Positions 495-53,694 of a stretch of DNA of 64,000 nucleotides are shown here, in pieces (positions within the stretch are counted from its first letter, which is position 1; each line of letters begins with the position of its first letter). The notes under the pieces are model-generated. The model made no database searches. It saw only the letters and a list, made by a program, of their open reading frames with translations, and was not told where the DNA came from. The position numbers and the translations under genes are program-made. Source of the stretch: Escherichia coli (GTDB taxonomy: Bacteria > Pseudomonadota > Gammaproteobacteria > Enterobacterales > Enterobacteriaceae); NCBI RefSeq assembly GCF_003334385.1, contig NZ_QOWN01000007.1; one strand, 5' to 3'.

Positions 495-1127
495 GTGGAT
501 AAACAAACCTTGCAGGAAACAGTGAACCAGATTCTGGATGAGATGCGCGAGCGCCCTATCCCACTGGGCGTTTCCAGTCGCCATATACATCTTTCAACAG
601 CGGATTATTTGCGTCTTTTTCCTGAACAACCGATTAGCGAGAAAAAGCCGTTAATGCAACCTGGCCAATACGCTGCGGAACAGGTTGTTACGCTGGAGGG
701 ACCAAAAGGCAAATTGCACAACGTTCGCTTGTTGGGGCCGCTACGCAATGCAAGTCAGGTGGAAATTTCCCGGACGGACGCCAGAACGTTAGGGATCACC
801 GCCCCGCTACGCATGTCAGGCGATCTCAGCGGCACTCCGGGGATTCGTTTGATAAGCCCATTTGCGGAACTGGAGATCACATCTGGCGTTATTGTCGCGC
901 AACGGCATATTCATATGTCTCCGCTGGATGCCCTGATTTATGGCGTTACGCATGGCGATAAAGTGGCGGTTGCCATTGAAGGTGATGAGCGACGACTGAT
1001 ATTCGAAAACGTCGCTGTTCGCGTCTCTCCGGATATGCGTCTTGAAATGCATATTGATACCGATGAGGCCAACGCCGCAGGCGCTGATAGCCCTGACGTT
1101 TTTGCCACACTGGTGTCAGTGCCATGA
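495..1127 (+). CDS. pduL: Phosphate propanoyltransferase PduL
   Basis: 210 aa, PduL/EutD-like sequence, position after pduK. Confidence 0.85.
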   Translation: MDKQTLQETVNQILDEMRERPIPLGVSSRHIHLSTADYLRLFPEQPISEKKPLMQPGQYAAEQVVTLEGPKGKLHNVRLLGPLRNASQVEISRTDARTLGITAPLRMSGDLSGTPGIRLISPFAELEITSGVIVAQRHIHMSPLDALIYGVTHGDKVAVAIEGDERRLIFENVAVRVSPDMRLEMHIDTDEANAAGADSPDVFATLVSVP

Positions 1128-1615
1128 ATAACATGCTGATGCAACGTATTGTTGACGAAGTGGTTTTTCGCCTTAAACAACGTGCGGGAAAAACACTCGT
1201 GCTGACTGTTTTTCAACTGCGAGACGCCAGCGTTCAAGAGAGCGTTCATCAGTATGCGTCATTACAAATCCGATATGTCGATCTGCCGCTGCTGCGACAA
1301 CTTGCGGAGAACGAAACGTCAGATCGAGCAGCGATTCAGATACACGAAGCGTTAGCCTGGGGATTGCACATTCAATTGTCGTTGCAGCGTCATTTCCTGA
1401 ACGCCATTGAATTGAAGACTCTCGCCCGTCTACCGCTAAGCTGGTGCGACGAACAAGGGCAACCGATCTACCTTCATCGTGATCGACTTTTAAGTTATGC
1501 CGATATCGCACAGTTAAGCTCGGGAATACTGGTTTTACAGCGGAAATGTTGTGTGACCGCACTGGCTCGTGAAGCGGCAATTACCCGAAATATTCAGTTA
1601 ATCAGGCAGGAGTAA
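1124..1615 (+). CDS. pduM: Microcompartment protein PduM
   Basis: 163 aa ORF, 4-bp overlap with pduL, operon synteny. Confidence 0.8.
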   Translation: MNNMLMQRIVDEVVFRLKQRAGKTLVLTVFQLRDASVQESVHQYASLQIRYVDLPLLRQLAENETSDRAAIQIHEALAWGLHIQLSLQRHFLNAIELKTLARLPLSWCDEQGQPIYLHRDRLLSYADIAQLSSGILVLQRKCCVTALAREAAITRNIQLIRQE

Positions 1616-1618
1616 CTT

Positions 1619-1894
1619 ATGCATCTGGCTCGAGTCACTGGCGCGGTAGTATCCACGCAAAAATCACCTTCTCTGATCGGGAAAAAACTGCTGCTGGTTC
1701 GCCGGATCAGTGCTGACGGCGAACTGCCTCTCACGCCATTAACCGGCGACGAAGTTGCCGTTGATTCAGTCGGCGCAGGCGTTGGTGAGTTGGTACTCCT
1801 CAGCAGTGGTTCCAGCGCCAGACATGTGTTTTCAGGCCCTAACGAGGCCATCGACCTGGCAGTGGTCGGCATTGTCGATACGCTTTCGCGCTAA
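1619..1894 (+). CDS. pduN: BMC vertex protein PduN (EutN/CcmL family)
   Basis: 91 aa, [15 protein letters not shown]... EutN/PduN-like. Confidence 0.85.
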
Positions 1895-1905
1895 GGAGCT
1901 AAAAG

Positions 1906-2913
1906 ATGGCAATTTATACCCGAACAGGTGATTCAGGAAGTACGTCTTTATTTACCGGACAGCGCGTCAGCAAAACTCATCTACGTGTCGAAACCTATGG
2001 CACGCTGGATGAACTGAACGCGACACTCAGTCTGTGTTATTGCGCCACCGCCATCGAAAGCCATCGCATCTTACTGGAAGCCATTCAACAACAGATATTT
2101 TGGTTTAGCGCCGAACTCGCCAGTGAAAGTGAACAGCCGTCAGCGCAACAGCGTTACATCGGTACGGAAGAAATTGCTGCGCTGGAAAACGCGATCGATA
2201 GCGCAATGAACGCCGTCCCCCCAGTTCACAGCTTCATTCTGCCTGGTCGATGTGAAGCCGCGAGCCGCATGCATTTCGCCCGCACAGTGGCTCGACGGGC
2301 TGAAAGACGTCTGGTTGAACTGACAACGGAAACCACCGTCCGGAATGTTTTGCTGCACTATATCAACCGACTTTCCGATTGTCTGTATGCCCTCGCCCGC
2401 GTGGAAGACAACGTTGCTCATCAAAACCTGATGATTCAGGAAATCACAAAACGTTATCACGAAGCCAACCACATACCAGCATTGAAGGAACGCACAATGC
2501 CGCTCACTTTTCAGGATCTTCACCAGCTCATTCGTAGTGCGGCAATGCGCGCGGATGAACTGCATATTCCCGTTGTCATCAGCATTGTTGATGCCAACGG
2601 AACAGAAAGTGTTACCTGGCGGATGCCTGATGCCCTGTTGGTCAGCAGTGAACTGGCACCGAAAAAAGCCTGGACCGCCGTGGCGATGAAAACGGCAACC
2701 CACAAACTTGCTGATACCGTGCAACCCGGCGCGCCGCTTTACGGGCTCGAAAGCCATATGCAAGGCAAAGTCGTCACTTTTGGTGGCGGCTTCCCCCTCT
2801 GGCGTGACGGAAAATTGCTTGGCGGGCTTGGCATCAGCGGCGGTAGCGTTGAACAAGACATGGATATTGCTCAAAGCGCAATGGCGGCAATTAACGTGGG
2901 AGTAAACCAATGA
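1906..2913 (+). CDS. pduO: ATP:cob(I)alamin adenosyltransferase PduO (N-terminal PduO-type ACA domain + C-terminal DUF336)
   Basis: 335 aa; N-terminus MAIYTRTGDSGSTSLF typical of PduO-type adenosyltransferases. Confidence 0.9.
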   Translation: MAIYTRTGDSGSTSLFTGQRVSKTHLRVETYGTLDELNATLSLCYCATAIESHRILLEAIQQQIFWFSAELASESEQPSAQQRYIGTEEIAALENAIDSAMNAVPPVHSFILPGRCEAASRMHFARTVARRAERRLVELTTETTVRNVLLHYINRLSDCLYALARVEDNVAHQNLMIQEITKRYHEANHIPALKERTMPLTFQDLHQLIRSAAMRADELHIPVVISIVDANGTESVTWRMPDALLVSSELAPKKAWTAVAMKTATHKLADTVQPGAPLYGLESHMQGKVVTFGGGFPLWRDGKLLGGLGISGGSVEQDMDIAQSAMAAINVGVNQ

Positions 2914-4295
2914 ATAACTCTGAATTAGAAACACTGATCCGCAATATTCTGCGCGAGCAACTTGTCCCCGCTACACCACGAACGCTAAGAAACGCTATTT
3001 TCCAGACTGTTGATGAAGCGGTCTGCGCAGCACACCAGGCCTTTTTACGCTTTCAACAGTGCCCGCTTAAAACCCGTAGCGCCATTATCAGTGCTATTCG
3101 CGAAGAATTAATGCCCCGCCTTACCGAACTGGCAGAAGAAAGCGCCAAAGAAACGGGGATGGGAAATAAAGAAGATAAGTACCTAAAAAACAAAGCGGCA
3201 CTCGATAATACGCCAGGAGTTGAAGATTTAACCACCACTGCACTAACCGGTGATGGTGGCATGGTTTTGTTTGAATACTCCCCGTTTGGGGTTATTGGCT
3301 CGGTCACGCCAAGCACCAATCCCACGGAAACCATCATTAACAACAGCATCAGCATGCTGGCAGCAGGTAATAGCGTCTACTTCAGTCCACACCCGGGAGC
3401 CAAATACGTTTCGTTAAAACTGATTACCACAATCGAAGACATCGCGTTTCGCTGTAGTGGCATTCATAACCTGATCGTTACCGTATCTGAACCGACCTTT
3501 GCTGCTACCGAACAGATGATGGCGCACCCTAAAATCAGCGTTCTGGCGATTACCGGCGGTCCGGGGATCGTCGCCATGGGAATGAAAAGTGGCAAGAAAG
3601 TGATTGGTGCCGGAGCGGGTAACCCTCCGTGTATCGTCGATGAAACGGCGGATATTGTGAAAGCCGCCGAAGATATCATCAACGGCGCTTCATTTGATTA
3701 CAACCTGCCGTGTATCGCTGAAAAAAGCCTGATTGTCGTAGCATCAGTGGCAGAGTATTTAATTCAGCAGATGCAAAGTTTTGGCGCGCTTCTTCTTAAC
3801 TATGAGCAAACGGAGAAATTGCGTGCAATTTGCCTGCCAGACGGTAGCGCCAACAAAAAACTGGTTGGGAAAAGCCCATCAGCCTTGCTGGAAGCGGCAG
3901 GCCTCCCTTTGCCCGCAAAAGCGCCGCGCCTACTGATTGCTGTTGTCGACGCCAATGATAGTTGGGTTACTTGTGAACAACTGATGCCAATGCTGCCCAT
4001 TGTGAAGGTCAACGATTTTGATAGCGCTCTCACCCTGGCGCTGAAAGTGGAAGACGGCTTGCACCACACGGCAATTATGCACTCGCAGAACGTCTCACGG
4101 CTCAACCTTGCCGCACGCGTTATGCAAACCTCAATCTTTGTCAAAAACGGCCCCTCCTGGGCGGGTATTGGCGTCGGCGGCGAAGGCTTTACGACCTTTA
4201 CCATTGCAACACCGACCGGAGAAGGGACAACGTCAGCCCGGACTTTTGCCCGCTCACGACGCTGCGTGTTAACCAGCGGCTTTTCAATTCGCTAG
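2910..4295 (+). CDS. pduP: CoA-acylating propionaldehyde dehydrogenase PduP
   Basis: 461 aa aldehyde dehydrogenase family with N-terminal encapsulation-like peptide; synteny. Confidence 0.9.
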   Translation: MNNSELETLIRNILREQLVPATPRTLRNAIFQTVDEAVCAAHQAFLRFQQCPLKTRSAIISAIREELMPRLTELAEESAKETGMGNKEDKYLKNKAALDNTPGVEDLTTTALTGDGGMVLFEYSPFGVIGSVTPSTNPTETIINNSISMLAAGNSVYFSPHPGAKYVSLKLITTIEDIAFRCSGIHNLIVTVSEPTFAATEQMMAHPKISVLAITGGPGIVAMGMKSGKKVIGAGAGNPPCIVDETADIVKAAEDIINGASFDYNLPCIAEKSLIVVASVAEYLIQQMQSFGALLLNYEQTEKLRAICLPDGSANKKLVGKSPSALLEAAGLPLPAKAPRLLIAVVDANDSWVTCEQLMPMLPIVKVNDFDSALTLALKVEDGLHHTAIMHSQNVSRLNLAARVMQTSIFVKNGPSWAGIGVGGEGFTTFTIATPTGEGTTSARTFARSRRCVLTSGFSIR

Positions 4296-4305
4296 AGAAA
4301 CGGAA

Positions 4306-5418
4306 ATGAATACTTTTTCACTGCAGACGCGTTTATACAGCGGACCGGGAAGTCTCAAGGTACTTAGCCGTTTCTCTCATAAACACATCTGGATTATTTG
4401 CGACGTCTTTCTGGCACGCTCACCACTCATTAACACGTTGCATCAGGCGCTGCCCGACAGTAATCGTCTTAGTATTTTTAGCGAAATAACGCCCGACCCA
4501 ACTATCCAGACCGTGGTGAAAGGCATTGCGCAAATGCAGACTTTACGCCCGGATGTGGTTATCGGTTTTGGCGGCGGTTCTGCCCTGGACGCCGCAAAAG
4601 CGATTGTCTGGTTCGGTCGCCAGTGTGGCATTGAAATTGAAACCTGCGTAGCCATTCCTACCACCAGCGGTACCGGTTCCGAAGTGACCAGTGCTTGTGT
4701 CATCAGCGATCCTGAGAAAGGGATTAAATATCCCCTTTTCGATAATGCACTTTATCCGGATATTGCGATCCTTGATCCATCTCTGGTCGTCAGCGTGCCA
4801 CCGGCGATAACGGCCAATACCGGGATGGATGTTTTAACCCATGCGCTTGAAGCTTATGTTTCTCCTCGCGCCAGCGACTTCACGGATGCACTGGTCGAAA
4901 AAGCCGTGCAAATTGTTTTTCAATACCTGCCCACTGCAGTGAAAAAAGGCGATTGTCTTGCCTCCCGTGGCAAAATGCATAATTCATCGACGCTTGCAGG
5001 AATGGCCTTTAGCCAGGCCGGACTCGGTTTAAACCATGCAATTGCTCATCAACTCGGCGGACAGTTTCATCTGCCGCACGGACTGGCGAATGCGCTCCTG
5101 CTCACGGCAGTTATCCGCTTTAATGCTGGCGATCCGCGCGCTGCCAAACGCTATGCCCGGCTGGCGAAAACGTGCCATTTATGCCCGGACAACGCCAATG
5201 ATACCGCCAGCCTGAATGCACTTATTCAACATATTGAGCAGCTTAAAACAACCTGTACGCTGCCGACTCTTGCCAATGCGCTGAAAGAAAAAAAAGCAGA
5301 ATGGTCAATACGCATACCAGATATGGTTCAGGCGGCGCTGGCGGATGCAACGTTGCGTACCAACCCGCGTGCGGCTGATGCCTCCGCGATTGCAGAACTG
5401 CTCGAGGAGTTGTTATGA
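4306..5418 (+). CDS. pduQ: Iron-containing alcohol dehydrogenase (1-propanol dehydrogenase) PduQ
   Basis: 370 aa Fe-ADH family (GGGSALDAAK motif). Confidence 0.9.
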   Translation: MNTFSLQTRLYSGPGSLKVLSRFSHKHIWIICDVFLARSPLINTLHQALPDSNRLSIFSEITPDPTIQTVVKGIAQMQTLRPDVVIGFGGGSALDAAKAIVWFGRQCGIEIETCVAIPTTSGTGSEVTSACVISDPEKGIKYPLFDNALYPDIAILDPSLVVSVPPAITANTGMDVLTHALEAYVSPRASDFTDALVEKAVQIVFQYLPTAVKKGDCLASRGKMHNSSTLAGMAFSQAGLGLNHAIAHQLGGQFHLPHGLANALLLTAVIRFNAGDPRAAKRYARLAKTCHLCPDNANDTASLNALIQHIEQLKTTCTLPTLANALKEKKAEWSIRIPDMVQAALADATLRTNPRAADASAIAELLEELL

Positions 5419-6758
5419 ACGTCGAGTTAACCTCCTGCGACGACCAGATCATCCGCGAGCGAGTACAAGCAGCAGGTGTCGTGGGTGCTGGCGGCGCAGG
5501 TTTTCCAACCCATATTAAGCTACAAGCGCGTGTTGACACTTTCCTGGTGAATGCGGCGGAATGCGAACCCATGTTGAAAGTGGATCAACAGTTAATGGCG
5601 CAGCAAGCCAGTCGCCTGCTTCGCGGTGTTCACTATGCGATGAAAGCCACCGGGGCCAGTAGCGGAATCATCGCGCTGAAAGAGAAATATCAACTGGCAA
5701 TAAACGCACTCACACCACTGTTACCACCGGATATCCGCCTGCATATTTTGCCCGATGTTTACCCCGCAGGAGACGAAGTGCTGACCATCTGGATGGCAAC
5801 TGGTCGCCGCGTTCCACCCGCTGCATTACCCGTTAGCGTCGGTGTGGTGGTCAATAATGTTCAAACCGTACTTAATATTGCCAGAGCCGTCGAGCAACAG
5901 TATCCAGTGACGCACCGCACACTCACCGTTAATGGTGCAGTGGCGAAACCAATAACGGTAACCGTCCCCATCGGCATGTCTTTACGTGAAGTCCTGGCGC
6001 TGGCGGGCGGCGCAACAGTGGATGCTCCTGGTTTTATCAATGGCGGGCCGATGATGGGAAGTTTGATCACATCGCTCGACACACCAGTCAGCAAAACCAC
6101 TGGCGGCTTGCTGGTTTTACCCAACTCTCATTCACTGATCCAACGTCGAATGCAGAATGACCGCAGCGTACTTGCCGTCGCGAAAACTGTTTGTGAGCAA
6201 TGCCGCTTGTGTACCGATCTCTGTCCACGTCATTTAATCGGCCACGAACTGGCTCCCCATTTACTAGTACGTGCGGTTAACTACCAACAGCTCGCTACGC
6301 CGCAACTGTTACTGACGGCGCTCACCTGTTCAGAGTGCAACGTCTGCGCCAGTGTCGCCTGTCCGGTAGGAATTTCACCAATGCGCATAAACCGCCTGCT
6401 TAAGCAGGAATTACGCGCAAAAAATCTCCGTTACGAAGGTACCTTAAATCCTGCAGATCCCATGGCAAATTATCGACTGATTCCCGTAAAACAGCTGGTA
6501 ACCAGACTTGGCTTAACCCCGTGGTATCAGGATGCGCCATTGTCTGAACAGGTGCCTCAGCCCGAAAAAGTGACGTTATTGTTACGCCAGCACATCGGTG
6601 CCAGCGCAATTGCGTGTGTACAAAAAGGCGATCGCGTCGTTCATGGGCAATGTGTAGGTCAAATTCCACACGGCACATTAGGTGCCCCCATTCATGCCAG
6701 TATTGATGGCATGGTCAGCGATGTGACAGAAAACGCGATTACGCTTGTGAGAGGTTAA
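5415..6758 (+). CDS. pduS: Cobalamin reductase PduS (RnfC/NuoF-like, Fe-S)
   Basis: 447 aa, [12 protein letters not shown] motif and two Cys clusters; synteny. Confidence 0.9.
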
Positions 6759-6760
6759 CC

Positions 6761-7315
6761 ATGTCGAAAGCGGTAGGTATTTTAGAACTTAGCAGTATCG
6801 CGAAAGGGATGGAAACCGGCGACGCCATGCTGAAAAGCGCCAACGTTGAGTTACTGGTCAGCAAAACGCTATGCCCCGGAAAATTTCTGCTGATGCTCGG
6901 TGGCGATGTGGGCGCGGTGCAACAGGCCATCAACAGCGGAGCGTCCCTTGCTGGTGAAATGCTGGTCGACAGTCTTGTCCTGCCGAATATTCATCCCAGC
7001 CTCCTTTCTGCAATCAGCGGACTTAACCATGTTGAACAGCACCGGGCTGTCGGCGTAGTCGAAACCTGGAGTGTCGCCGCCTGCATTGACGCTGCCGATT
7101 GTGCTGTCAAAGCTGCGAATGTCATTCTCGTTCGCGTACATATGGCTTTTGGCATTGGCGGTAAATGCTACATGGTGGTTGCTGGCGATATTTCAGATGT
7201 TAATAACGCGGTCTCTGTCGCCAGCGAGCGTGCGGGGGAAAAAGGTTTGTTGGTCTATCGGTCGGTGATTGCCCGTCCACATGAAGCCATGTGGCGTCAG
7301 ATGGTGGAGGGATAA
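6761..7315 (+). CDS. pduT: BMC shell protein PduT (tandem BMC domains)
   Basis: 184 aa with two BMC-like halves; synteny. Confidence 0.85.
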
Positions 7316-7665
7316 TGACAACTCAGCACACAACTGAACGGATGATTCAGGAATATGTCCCTGGTAAGCAGGTCACGCTGGCACATGTCATCGCCAATCC
7401 AGGGAAGGATCTGTTTAAGAAATTGGGTTTACCAGACACCATTTCCGCTATTGGCATTCTGACGATTACCCCCAGCGAAGCATCTATCATCGCATGCGAT
7501 ATCGCCACAAAATCAGGCGCTGTAGAGATCGGTTTTCTTGATCGTTTTACCGGTGCCGTAGTGCTGACTGGTGATGTTTCTGCGATCGAATATGCACTTA
7601 GCCAGGTTACCCGTACGCTGGGTGAAATGATGCGCTTTACCGCCTGCCCCATTACGCGAACCTGA
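7315..7665 (+). CDS. pduU: BMC shell protein PduU (EutS/PduU family)
   Basis: 116 aa from ATG overlapping pduT stop (TAATG); ORF-track start at 7291 is probably an upstream extension. Confidence 0.8.
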
Positions 7666-7669
7666 CGTT

Positions 7670-8113
7670 ATGCAACGTATGATGCTCATCGGCCCCAGCC
7701 AGTGCGGAAAAACGTCACTCACGCAATGTCTGCGTAGCGAAAATATTCATTATCAGAAAACGCAGGCAATCGTCTGGTCCCCGACCACCATTGATACACC
7801 AGGCGAATACCTCGAAAACCGCAGCCTCTACAGTGCACTGTTGGTCAGTGCCTGCGAAGCAGACATTATCGCGCTGGTGCTTAATGCGGACGCACCGTGG
7901 TCACCTTTTTCGCCAGGCTTTACCTTGTCAATGAATCGCCCGGTCATTGGAGTAGTAACCAAAGCAGATTTAGCCAGCATGGAACAAATATCTTTGGTGA
8001 AATGTTGGTTACGGGAAGCTGGAGCGCACAACGTGTTAGTAACCAGTGCGGTTAATAACAATGGAGTGGCAGAACTTTTAGCCTTGCTGCATACAGAAGA
8101 AGGCTGTCGCTAA
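7670..8113 (+). CDS. pduV: Microcompartment-associated GTPase PduV (EutP/PduV family)
   Basis: 147 aa with P-loop [10 protein letters not shown]. Confidence 0.85.
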
Positions 8114-9971: not shown

Positions 9972-10445
9972 TTAGTGATGTTTTGGCTGCACCGCAACAT
10001 ACATTTCGATATCCCAGTACCCATCTTCCGCGCCATTGTTCAAATAAACCTCGAAGCAGGGCTTTGGTAACATTTCATAAGCACTGTCCTGCAAGAGGCT
10101 ATTAAAGAACTGATACCAGGGTTTAGCAAAATCATCACCGACTACACGAGCCACCGCAACCGCATACTGACCACCTGAAATTTCTGTCAGAATGACGCCC
10201 TCACTGTTTTCGGGGAGCGTAAAGTTATTCGGTACCGTCACGACGGTGTCGCAGCGTAATTTTTCGGCGGGTGTTTCATCTGGATTGTCGTAATAGACAG
10301 CAACCCACTCCTTCGGCACAATATTTTGGCTATCTACCCACATCATCAACTGCTCAAAACCTTTCTTTACCGTCTGTTCCCACGGGCCAACGAGATGGAA
10401 ACCTGCAACGGTACGTTTATCTTCCTGCTTAATCTCGTAGTTCAT
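9972..10445 (-). CDS. sbmC: DNA gyrase inhibitor SbmC (GyrI)
   Basis: 157 aa; LexA box immediately upstream. Confidence 0.9.
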
Positions 10446-10459
10446 GACGCCTCCATTAA

Positions 10460-10479
10460 TACTGTTTTTATATACAGTA
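10460..10479. promoter_or_regulatory. LexA (SOS) box in sbmC promoter
   Basis: TACTGTTTTTATATACAGTA matches CTGT-N8-ACAG consensus, ~15 bp upstream of sbmC start. Confidence 0.8.
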
Positions 10480-10563
10480 TAGTTGCAATATTAAAACCAC
10501 AAGGAATGAGTGTTGATTATGCGAGCAGACTCGCACTCCTGCCAGTCTGCTGCAAAAGAAAGG

Positions 10564-11736
10564 TCAGGCCTTATGGTGGAAATAATCACTCAGGCGAGAA
10601 AACATGCTGCCTTCCCCGACAGATTCCAGGGTAACCAGCGGCCAGTGCGCCACCTGTTTATCACGGTCGTAAAGTTCAATTTCCCCTACCCGCTGATGGG
10701 CGCTAATTGGCGCGGTGAGTTCTTTACCATCAAGGGTATATTTGGCTTTGATATGTGGAATTTCGGCTTTCGGTAGCACCATCCAGAACTCTTGTTCCGT
10801 TCCCAGGGCGATATTTTCTTTATCGCCATACCAGATGCGTTCCGTACCGACCTTTTTCCCACGGTGCAAAATTTGCACCGTAGTAAAGTTTTGTTGCCCC
10901 CAACGCAGTAATTTTCTTGCCTCTTCCTCACGACCTTTTGCGCTGTCAGCACCCATTACCACTGCAATGAGACGACGCTGCCCATCTACAGCCGAAGCAA
11001 TGAGATTAAACCCGGCACCAGAAGTATGACCCGTTTTCAGGCCGTCAACATTCATGGTTTTATCCCACAATAACCCGTTACGGTTTTGCTGGGTGATACC
11101 GTTCCAGGTGAGGCTTTTCTCACTGTACATATGATAAAACTCGGGCTCGCCGTGGATGATAGCACGAGAAAGCACAGCTAAATCATAAGCCGAGCTATGC
11201 TGACCTGGCGCATCCAGGCCATGCACTGTTTCAAAATGCGTATCCTTGAGATGCAGCTTCTCGGCATAGTTGTTCATCATTTCAACAAACTGCCGTTGCC
11301 CACCGGCAATATAGTCAGCCAGAGCAACACAAGCGTCATTTCCGGAATCAACAATTAAACCACGGCTTAAATCACGTACCGATACGCGATCGCCCTCTTT
11401 CAAAAACATCAGTGAAGAACCGACAAACACCGGATTATCTTTCGCCCACGCATCGCGCCCCACGGTGACAATATCGTCTGGCGTAATGCGATGACTATCG
11501 ATAGCGCGATCCACGACATAACCCGTCATCAGCTTTGTCAGGCTGGCGGGATTGCGCTGTTGATGCTCATTACCCGCGGTGAGGATCTGTCCGGTGGTGT
11601 AATCCATCAGTACCCAGGACCCGGCATGAATCTCTGGAGGCTGAGGTGAAAAAGGAATGTTTTCCGCCGCAAAACCAGACGATAAGTTAAAAACGAACAA
11701 AGAAGCAGCAATAATAAGACGGCGTTTCAACAGCAA
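10564..11736 (-). CDS. dacD: D-alanyl-D-alanine carboxypeptidase DacD (PBP6b)
   Basis: 390 aa with signal peptide and SxxK (ASLTKLMT) motif. Confidence 0.9.
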   Translation of the reverse strand: MLLKRRLIIAASLFVFNLSSGFAAENIPFSPQPPEIHAGSWVLMDYTTGQILTAGNEHQQRNPASLTKLMTGYVVDRAIDSHRITPDDIVTVGRDAWAKDNPVFVGSSLMFLKEGDRVSVRDLSRGLIVDSGNDACVALADYIAGGQRQFVEMMNNYAEKLHLKDTHFETVHGLDAPGQHSSAYDLAVLSRAIIHGEPEFYHMYSEKSLTWNGITQQNRNGLLWDKTMNVDGLKTGHTSGAGFNLIASAVDGQRRLIAVVMGADSAKGREEEARKLLRWGQQNFTTVQILHRGKKVGTERIWYGDKENIALGTEQEFWMVLPKAEIPHIKAKYTLDGKELTAPISAHQRVGEIELYDRDKQVAHWPLVTLESVGEGSMFSRLSDYFHHKA

Positions 11737-16245: not shown

Positions 16246-16511
16246 GGTCATTCTCCTTTACGGTGATAACCGTCGCGTAAGCAAAAAATTGCCCCATTTT
16301 TTTGGATTCCTCAGCGACAACAACTGTCGATTTTTAGTAAATATCTATCCGGTACGAAGCCCGGCCTCTTGGTATGAATGATTGGTTTGAAGCAAAAAAT
16401 AACCGACGCTGATGAAACGTCGGTTTTTAGTCATTTTTTGACAGCGGCGCATTGTGCCTAAATGGGGGGGAAATGACAAGAGAATGAGAGGCTTGTCATA
16501 ATAATTTTTCT

Positions 16512-19179: not shown

Positions 19180-19230
19180 ATGACACGCGTTCAATTTAAA
19201 CACCACCATCATCACCATCATCCTGACTAG
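19180..19230 (+). CDS. hisL: his operon leader peptide HisL
   Basis: MTRVQFKHHHHHHHPD* with seven consecutive His codons. Confidence 0.95.
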   Translation: MTRVQFKHHHHHHHPD

Positions 19231-19293
19231 TCTTTCAGGCGATGTGTGCTGGAAGACATTCAGATCTTCCAGTGGTGCATGAACGCATGAGAA

Positions 19294-19329
19294 AGCCCCC
19301 GGAAGATCACCTTCCGGGGGCTTTTTTAT
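19294..19329 (+). terminator. his attenuator terminator
   Basis: agcccccggaag-atcac-cttccgggggc followed by TTTTTTAT. Confidence 0.9.
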
Positions 19330-29495: not shown

Positions 29496-29650
29496 TGGGA
29501 CCCCCTTTTGATTTCTTGTTTGACACTTGCAGTTGCCAGACCGCAAGGTGTTTTAACAAATCAAAAGGGGTTATAATAACTGGCTCAAAGCTGAAAGCTT
29601 TCCGGAACCCCCAGCCTAGCTGGGGGTTTTCTTAGTATGAAACAAAATAA

Positions 29651-48799: not shown

Positions 48800-49285
48800 T
48801 TTTTTGCCTGATGCGACGCTGGCGCGTCTTATCAGGCCTACAAGACCCGAGCACAGAACCGTAGGCCGGATAAGGCGTTCACGCCGCATCCGGCATTCAG
48901 TGCCTGATGCGACGCTGACGCGTCTTATCAGGCCTACAGGTCCCGAGCACAGAACCGTAGGATGGATAAGGCGTTCACGCCGCATCCGGCATTCAGTGCC
49001 TGATGCGACGCTGGCGCGTCTTATCAGGCCTACAAGACCCGAGCACAGAACCGTAGGCCGGATAAGGCGTTTTACGCCGCATCCGGCATTCAGTGCCTGA
49101 TGCGACGCTGGCGCGTCTTATCGGGCCTACAAGATCCAAGCCCTGAACCGTAGGCCGGATAAGGCGTTCACGCCGCATCCGGCATTCAGTGCCTGATGCG
49201 ACGCTGACGCGTCTTATCAGGCCTACAGGTCCCGAGCACAGAACCGTAGGATGGATAAGGCGTTTTACGCTGCACCCGGCAACCG
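48800..49285. repeat. BIME array: about 10 REP palindromic units in alternating orientation
   Basis: Repeated gcctgatgcgacgctg(g/a)cgcgtcttatcaggcctac and gtaggccggataaggcgttcacgccgcatccggc units. Confidence 0.9.
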
Positions 49286-53608: not shown

Positions 53609-53694
53609 GTCGTTACCCTTTTTCAGGCAATAGTTGGCCCTGACCGAAACGGCCAATTTTGTTTTTGTCGTTATTTACATCTCGGTTTCGCATT

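Follow-up and report, generated by a model that had tools for sequence, protein, structure and literature searches.

The DNA analysed here is a 64 kb stretch of an Escherichia coli chromosome (64,000 nucleotides, referred to below as the window), and the feature under study lies in it between two genes of the minus strand, dacD upstream and sbmC downstream (Table 1). The product of the downstream open reading frame matches the NCBIfam equivalog model NF007451 with 302.7 bits, against a cut-off of 179, over residues 1-157 of 157, and is an SbmC equivalog. dacD, sbmC and yeeA are co-directional, all three being encoded on the minus strand, and K-12 MG1655 presents an identical layout (yeeA-sbmC-dacD/sbcB). 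A 629-bp stretch of the locus is matched at a minimum of 95% identity in 5418 of the 5426 complete E. coli genomes, and strain MS7163, which is 100% identical over these 629 bp, is annotated in RefSeq with dacD and sbmC at this place.

Table 1. Features of the dacD-sbmC region and RNA family matches elsewhere in the window.
Feature	Position	Strand	Evidence or remark
sbmC (gyrI) coding sequence, 157 aa, DNA gyrase inhibitor	9972..10445	-	ORF, NCBIfam NF007451, RefSeq annotation
Shine-Dalgarno GGAGG, 4 nt before the sbmC ATG	10450..10454	-	gene-sense sequence; invariant in 42/42 aligned sequences
LexA operator (SOS box)	10460..10479	-	pattern statistics, matrix score, published identity, ortholog conservation
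Core CTGT-N8-ACAG of the LexA box	10462-10477
-10-like hexamer TATACT, with a C before it (CTATACT)	10476..10481	-	putative promoter element
CRP-S-type palindrome TGCGAGTCTGCTCGCA (TGCGA-N6-TCGCA)	10520..10535	-	cross-genus conserved block; probable second regulatory input
Predicted RNA hairpin directly following the dacD stop	10520..10554	-	overlaps the CRP-S palindrome
dacD, upstream, co-directional	10564..11736	-	ORF; NCBIfam DacD equivalog, 848.6 bits
STnc240	16392-16466		Rfam
His operon leader	19206-19329		Rfam
STnc490	29505-29628		Rfam
JUMPstart, in front of the O-antigen cluster	43477-43515		Rfam
algC RNA	53613-53662		Rfam

The first-pass annotation had proposed that a 20-mer in this intergenic region fits the CTGT-N8-ACAG pattern of a LexA operator and that it stands directly upstream of the sbmC start. 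Direct reading of the plus strand gives TACTGTTTTTATATACAGTA, which in the sense of the gene, on the minus strand, is TACTGTATATAAAAACAGTA followed by TTAAT-GGAGG-CGTC-ATG. The placement therefore holds with a refinement, since sbmC is read from the minus strand and the end of the box lies 14 nt 5' of its ATG (10445-10443). On the other side, the dacD stop codon precedes the box by 84 nt.

The proposed fit to the LexA pattern is borne out as well, CTGT-N8-ACAG occurring a single time in the window. Shuffled sequences contain this pattern 0.45 times on average and at least once in 32 of 100 shuffles; these eight bases are, on their own, weak evidence and not significant. The full 20-mer agrees with the consensus TACTG(TA)5CAGTA (TACTGTATATATATACAGTA) at 18 of 20 positions, with two mismatches. 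It is the only site in the 64 kb with three mismatches or fewer, a quality of match that none of 100 shuffles produced, and at this length the agreement with the LexA consensus is significant. A LexA weight matrix was also built from the E. coli boxes printed in Table 4 of PMC3009722, with that of sbmC left out. When the umuD box was kept in the matrix, the 20-mer scored 27.6 bits vs 12.0 for the next best 20-mer in the window; when the matrix was symmetrised and both sbmC and umuD were withheld (16 boxes), the values were 26.6 and 10.6 bits. A score of 26.6 bits is among the highest of the published E. coli boxes tested, the lowest-scoring boxes of the training set reaching 13.5-18 bits. The heterology index that we obtained, 0.58, derives from 17 sites of PMC3009722 and not from the matrix of Lewis et al., and is not comparable with published indices. 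Judged by its sequence, the 20-mer has the features of a LexA operator; for LexA binding and for induction, we rely on the literature.

That literature already contains the site. A tiling-array study in which sbmC was UV-induced gives TATACTGTATATAAAAACAGTATCA for sbmC in its list of LexA motifs found in front of UV-induced genes; the offset of 64, counted within the 100 nt that precede the start codon, puts the 20-mer at -34 to -15 (PMC3009722, Table 4). This placement of the published K-12 box is exactly the position of the box in the window, and the same table prints the same 20-mer for umuD. Reading the DNA of K-12 MG1655 directly (sbmC, b2009; Baquero et al. 1995 via PMC5999292), we found an identical TACTGTATATAAAAACAGTA at the same 14 nt from the ATG, within a dacD-sbmC intergenic region of the same length (118 nt) that carries the same CRP-S palindrome. 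Only two differences separate the promoter region of the window from that of K-12, and both are flanking: TTA vs TCA just after the box and AATATTG vs AATTTTG upstream. The encoded SbmC proteins are 96.8% identical. The window shows no departure from the arrangement published for K-12, and the finding is correct and already known: it is the published K-12 sbmC operator, seen here in another strain of E. coli. The operator of umuDC is the same 20-mer, although it serves a different gene, with different flanks and in a sigma-70 promoter context, and is accompanied by no CRP-S site. Lewis et al. 1994 reportedly placed this umuDC operator among the tightest LexA operators, and Fernandez de Henestrosa et al. 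2000 and Wade et al. 2005 are said to have reported the sbmC box and its occupancy by LexA.

Several further sources bear on the regulation of the gene. A review of the SOS response includes sbmC in its table of the E. coli LexA regulon (PMC6590174), and a promoter-GFP fusion responded to UV with biphasic induction in a study that cites Baquero et al. 1995 (PMC5999292). GyrI/SbmC is summarised elsewhere as SOS-induced and also as induced in stationary phase (PMC10886550). Nalidixic acid raised sbmC 3.55-fold in Salmonella, where the gene has a single box at 21 bp from its ATG (PMC8072944, Table 1). Salmonella enterica is like E. coli in its single box near the ATG, with a higher published heterology index of 6.32 (PMC8072944); the boxes of S. 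enterica subsp. diarizonae and arizonae, CACTGTATATAAATACAGTG and TACTGTATATAAGTACAGTA, differ in sequence from that of E. coli and stand 16 nt before the ATG.

Within E. coli, ten sequences that span the identity range, comprising the window, K-12 and eight other strains, are unchanged at box positions 1-19 and have A or G at position 20. By blastn among complete E. coli genomes, a 41-mer around the box was found in 5150 genomes at no less than 90% identity and 80% coverage. Exact 30-mer counts (3947 + 466 of 5426 genomes) underestimate the conservation of the box because polymorphisms in the flanks break the 28-base seed, and the 41-mer search and the direct reading of nine strains plus the window are the better measures.

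Natural alleles with a disrupted operator also exist. In ATCC 25922 (L052, 2501-4420), an ISL3-like element is inserted inside the LexA box, at the equivalent of window position 10466/10467, with an 8-bp target duplication (ATATAAAA). The insert contains an ISEc53-family transposase and a ClbS/DfsB-like gene, both annotated as frameshifted, and puts about 1.9 kb between sbmC and its -10 and CRP-S site. The same junction was found in 132 (full length) to 215 of the 5426 complete E. coli genomes, Nissle 1917 among them. The Shine-Dalgarno sequence just after the box varies too: E. coli 2011C_4247 has AATGGGACGTCATG in this region, a 1-nt deletion turning GGAGG into GGGAC, and both ATCC 25922 and one further strain (L051) have GGGGG. 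These differences are natural variation of the ribosome binding site.

To collect orthologous loci, a single genome of each species was scanned with a degenerate DNA pattern encoding GYWDIEMY, a peptide at the C-terminus of SbmC; this search is blind to the promoter. It returned 41 loci from Escherichia, Citrobacter, Salmonella, Enterobacter, Klebsiella, Raoultella, Lelliottia, Silvania and other Enterobacteriaceae; the K-12 and MS7163 loci brought the set to 43, of which 41 had sufficient upstream DNA. In all 41 usable loci, from at least eight genera, the LexA matrix finds its best match within the 250 nt upstream of sbmC at a distance of 14-24 nt from the ATG, and this match is also the top one of the whole locus. 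Its score ranges from 10.9 to 26.6 bits and is 15.5 or more in all but two loci, the next best match elsewhere in the locus usually remaining below 10 bits. The first-pass annotation had considered the box consistent with DNA-damage-inducible expression of sbmC, and this is supported by the identity of SbmC, by the identity of the box with that of K-12, by its presence in 41/41 loci, and by the published induction with UV and nalidixic acid. As a separate observation, the locus of Citrobacter sp. wls619 contains a second strong LexA-like 20-mer (23.7 bits) elsewhere in its 14 kb, away from sbmC.

Alignment of the sbmC intergenic regions reveals three conserved islands, namely the box, the GGAGG and a block about 60 bp upstream, the remainder having diverged. 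Across genera, TGTA and CAG of the box are invariant and the central A/T bases drift. The promoter-proximal half-site is GTGT in nine Enterobacter, Lelliottia and Silvania loci (L007, L013, L017, L018, L028, L033, L034, L040, L042) and ATGT, not CTGT, in eight loci of the Klebsiella/Raoultella type (L006, L022, L023, L025, L026, L030, L039, L043); the other half-site in these loci is ACAG throughout, except for CCAG in L023. A precedent for a non-canonical first half is given by E. coli dinG, with TTGG for CTGT (PMC3009722).

The conserved block farther upstream corresponds to the CRP-S-type palindrome, whose centre in the window lies 58 bp upstream of that of the LexA box. According to Cameron & Redfield 2006 (PMC1635313), sbmC is CRP-regulated through a site resembling the CRP-S motif, with the core TGCGA, and is induced 6-fold by Sxy, with an absolute need for CRP and cAMP and by a class I mechanism. 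CRP-S sites are 22-bp CRP-type palindromes in which position 6 is C and position 17 is G (TGCGA...TCGCA), lying upstream of class I, Sxy-dependent promoters. In the window, TGCGAGTCTGCTCGCA has this sequence feature; this likeness belongs to the upstream element and not to the LexA box. From the motif and its conservation, we infer that positions 10520-10535 are the published Sxy-dependent CRP-S site of sbmC. If transcription began 7 nt after TATACT, the centre of this site would fall at about -58.5, the ideal being -61.5. The palindrome also overlaps both a predicted RNA hairpin and a promoter predicted by the consensus scan (CTGGCA-18-CATAAT). The intergenic stretch 10440-10563 (124 nt), taken as a whole and not as the hairpin alone, has a minimum free energy of -35.1 kcal/mol (z = -3.2), and no U-tract follows the hairpin.

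The distance between the CRP-type site and the LexA box is 58 bp in E. coli and 59-61 bp in the other loci of Escherichia, Citrobacter, Salmonella and Enterobacter type, this 58-61 bp group of TGCGA-type sites consisting of 28 such loci, the window and the identical MS7163 locus. In the Klebsiella/Raoultella-type loci (the eight with ATGT and L041), the distance is 45-47 bp and the site reads TGTGA-N6-GCACA in eight of nine and TGCGA-N6-TCACA in L025, which suggests that these promoters may belong to a different class. It is conceivable, though we would give it only a small chance, that rewiring has changed, from one genus to another, how SOS repression of sbmC is balanced against its activation by CRP/Sxy. 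Such rewiring could oppose a class I CRP-S promoter under tight LexA control to a class II-like CRP-N promoter in which LexA control is weakened. We know of no description of a between-genus change of this kind in the LexA and CRP control of sbmC.

The -10-like hexamer TATACT runs into the LexA box, the two sharing four bases (the end of the hexamer and the beginning of the box), and in other genera the aligned hexamers are TACACT and TATAGT. A consensus promoter scan of the intergenic region did not call TATACT; it called CTGGCA-18-CATAAT at 10545-10516, upstream of the box. No convincing -35 element was found at 16-18 nt from TATACT, the hexamer TTGTGG standing at 15 nt. As a -35 element, TTGTGG was rejected, its spacing to the -10-like hexamer varying from 15 to 18 nt between genera and the hexamer being deleted in the Klebsiella group. 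In the array data, the 100 nt that precede the UV-induced transcript over sbmC are listed with a motif starting AGGCCTGACC at offset 0 (PMC3009722, Table 8). Since AGGCCTGACC starts at window position 10571, the 5' end of this transcript would lie at about 10471, inside the box, at an array resolution of about 7 nt. The promoter-fusion study that described the biphasic response of sbmC notes that no sigma-70 promoter is predicted for it (PMC5999292), so that the promoter architecture given here is tentative.

Taking these elements together, the 20-mer is almost certainly the LexA operator of the E. coli sbmC promoter, probably acting by occlusion and combined with CRP/Sxy input. Occlusion of the -10 and start region is the most likely mode of repression because the box overlaps both TATACT and the approximate start of the UV-induced transcript, the exact -10, the start site and hence the occlusion being deduced from these positions. 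A class I CRP site near -60 would likewise place the LexA box across the start site, in agreement with occlusion. In undamaged cells, a LexA dimer would occupy the CTGT and ACAG half-sites, which would cover the 3' part of TATACT and the start region, some 25 nt before the ATG, and would keep RNA polymerase from forming an open complex. Upon DNA damage, RecA filaments on single-stranded DNA would stimulate the self-cleavage of LexA, whereby the operator would be vacated and sbmC transcribed; SbmC would then bind DNA gyrase and limit gyrase-mediated damage. As the operator is very near the consensus and identical to that of umuDC, tight repression and a late release would be expected. The same promoter would receive positive input from cAMP-CRP and Sxy at the upstream palindrome, in addition to a stationary-phase input.

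An arrangement that competes with occlusion takes CTGGCA-18-CATAAT as the real promoter, with a start near 10509; LexA would then sit at about +30 to +50 and impede elongation as a roadblock. No other minus-strand promoter-like site was called in the intergenic region, and conservation across genera extends to CATAAT/CATACT and to part of the -35-like hexamer. That conservation is, however, accounted for by the CRP-S palindrome and its flank, a class I site lying about 60 bp upstream of the start as described in PMC1635313. Furthermore, the match is only 9/12, with 1.3 such sites expected by chance in the region, and the array places the 5' end of the UV-induced transcript near 10471 and not near 10509 (PMC3009722). 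We consider the roadblock improbable because the conserved upstream block is better explained as a CRP site, and with the array start inside the box, CTGGCA-18-CATAAT was rejected as the main promoter.

The remaining explanations would take the box away from LexA or from sbmC. The palindrome might be a chance AT-rich inverted repeat, or an RNA hairpin of the 5' UTR or of dacD read-through, with no role for LexA: the eight-base pattern does arise in about a third of the shuffles (32/100), and the predicted RNA fold pairs both arms of the box palindrome. Nevertheless, the full 20-mer match was never reached in shuffles, the box is identical to the verified umuDC operator, and a start inside it would leave its hairpin not wholly transcribed. 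Conservation falls on the bases contacted by LexA, TGTA and CAG, while the 8 nt between them vary within A/T, as a protein-binding site would and a stem would not; on the strength of this cross-genus pattern, the hairpin or terminator reading was rejected. With the SOS induction of sbmC documented in several sources besides (PMC5999292, PMC6590174, PMC8072944, PMC3009722), we attach a negligible probability to any account that dispenses with LexA. It also seems highly unlikely that the box chiefly serves a neighbour. Since dacD, sbmC and yeeA are co-directional, bound LexA could block read-through from dacD, and derepression could reach yeeA; yet the box lies far closer to the sbmC ATG (14 nt) than to the dacD stop (84 nt), its position relative to the sbmC start is kept across genera, and the gene lists of PMC6590174 and PMC3009722 name sbmC, dacD and yeeA being absent from the excerpts examined.

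The LexA operator in front of sbmC means, for this strain, that it keeps intact SOS control of SbmC, a gyrase inhibitor that gives protection from microcin B17, from poisons of the quinolone type and from other damage mediated by gyrase; beyond the correct annotation, the import is small. Being of textbook grade and identical to that of umuDC, the box is usable as a positive control in scans for LexA sites. The cross-genus footprint and the natural IS-disrupted alleles could serve studies of sbmC regulation.

Elsewhere in the window, the Rfam matches listed in Table 1 are in keeping with the E. coli region that holds the his, gnd, O-antigen and colanic-acid genes. An naRNA4 element (CssrE / REP325-type) in four tandem copies occupies 48864-49223. 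At 495-8113, adjoining tmaR/yeeX, lie genes resembling those of a propanediol-utilisation (pdu) microcompartment. They encode a phosphate propanoyltransferase, a PduO-type adenosyltransferase, an aldehyde dehydrogenase, an Fe-alcohol dehydrogenase and an RnfC-like protein of the PduS type, together with a PduT-like shell protein, whose match to the PduT family is below the model cut-off, and a full-length EutP/PduV GTPase of 147 aa. At the corresponding place in MS7163 there are only prophage relics and a PduV remnant of 61 aa, and the window therefore comes from a different strain.
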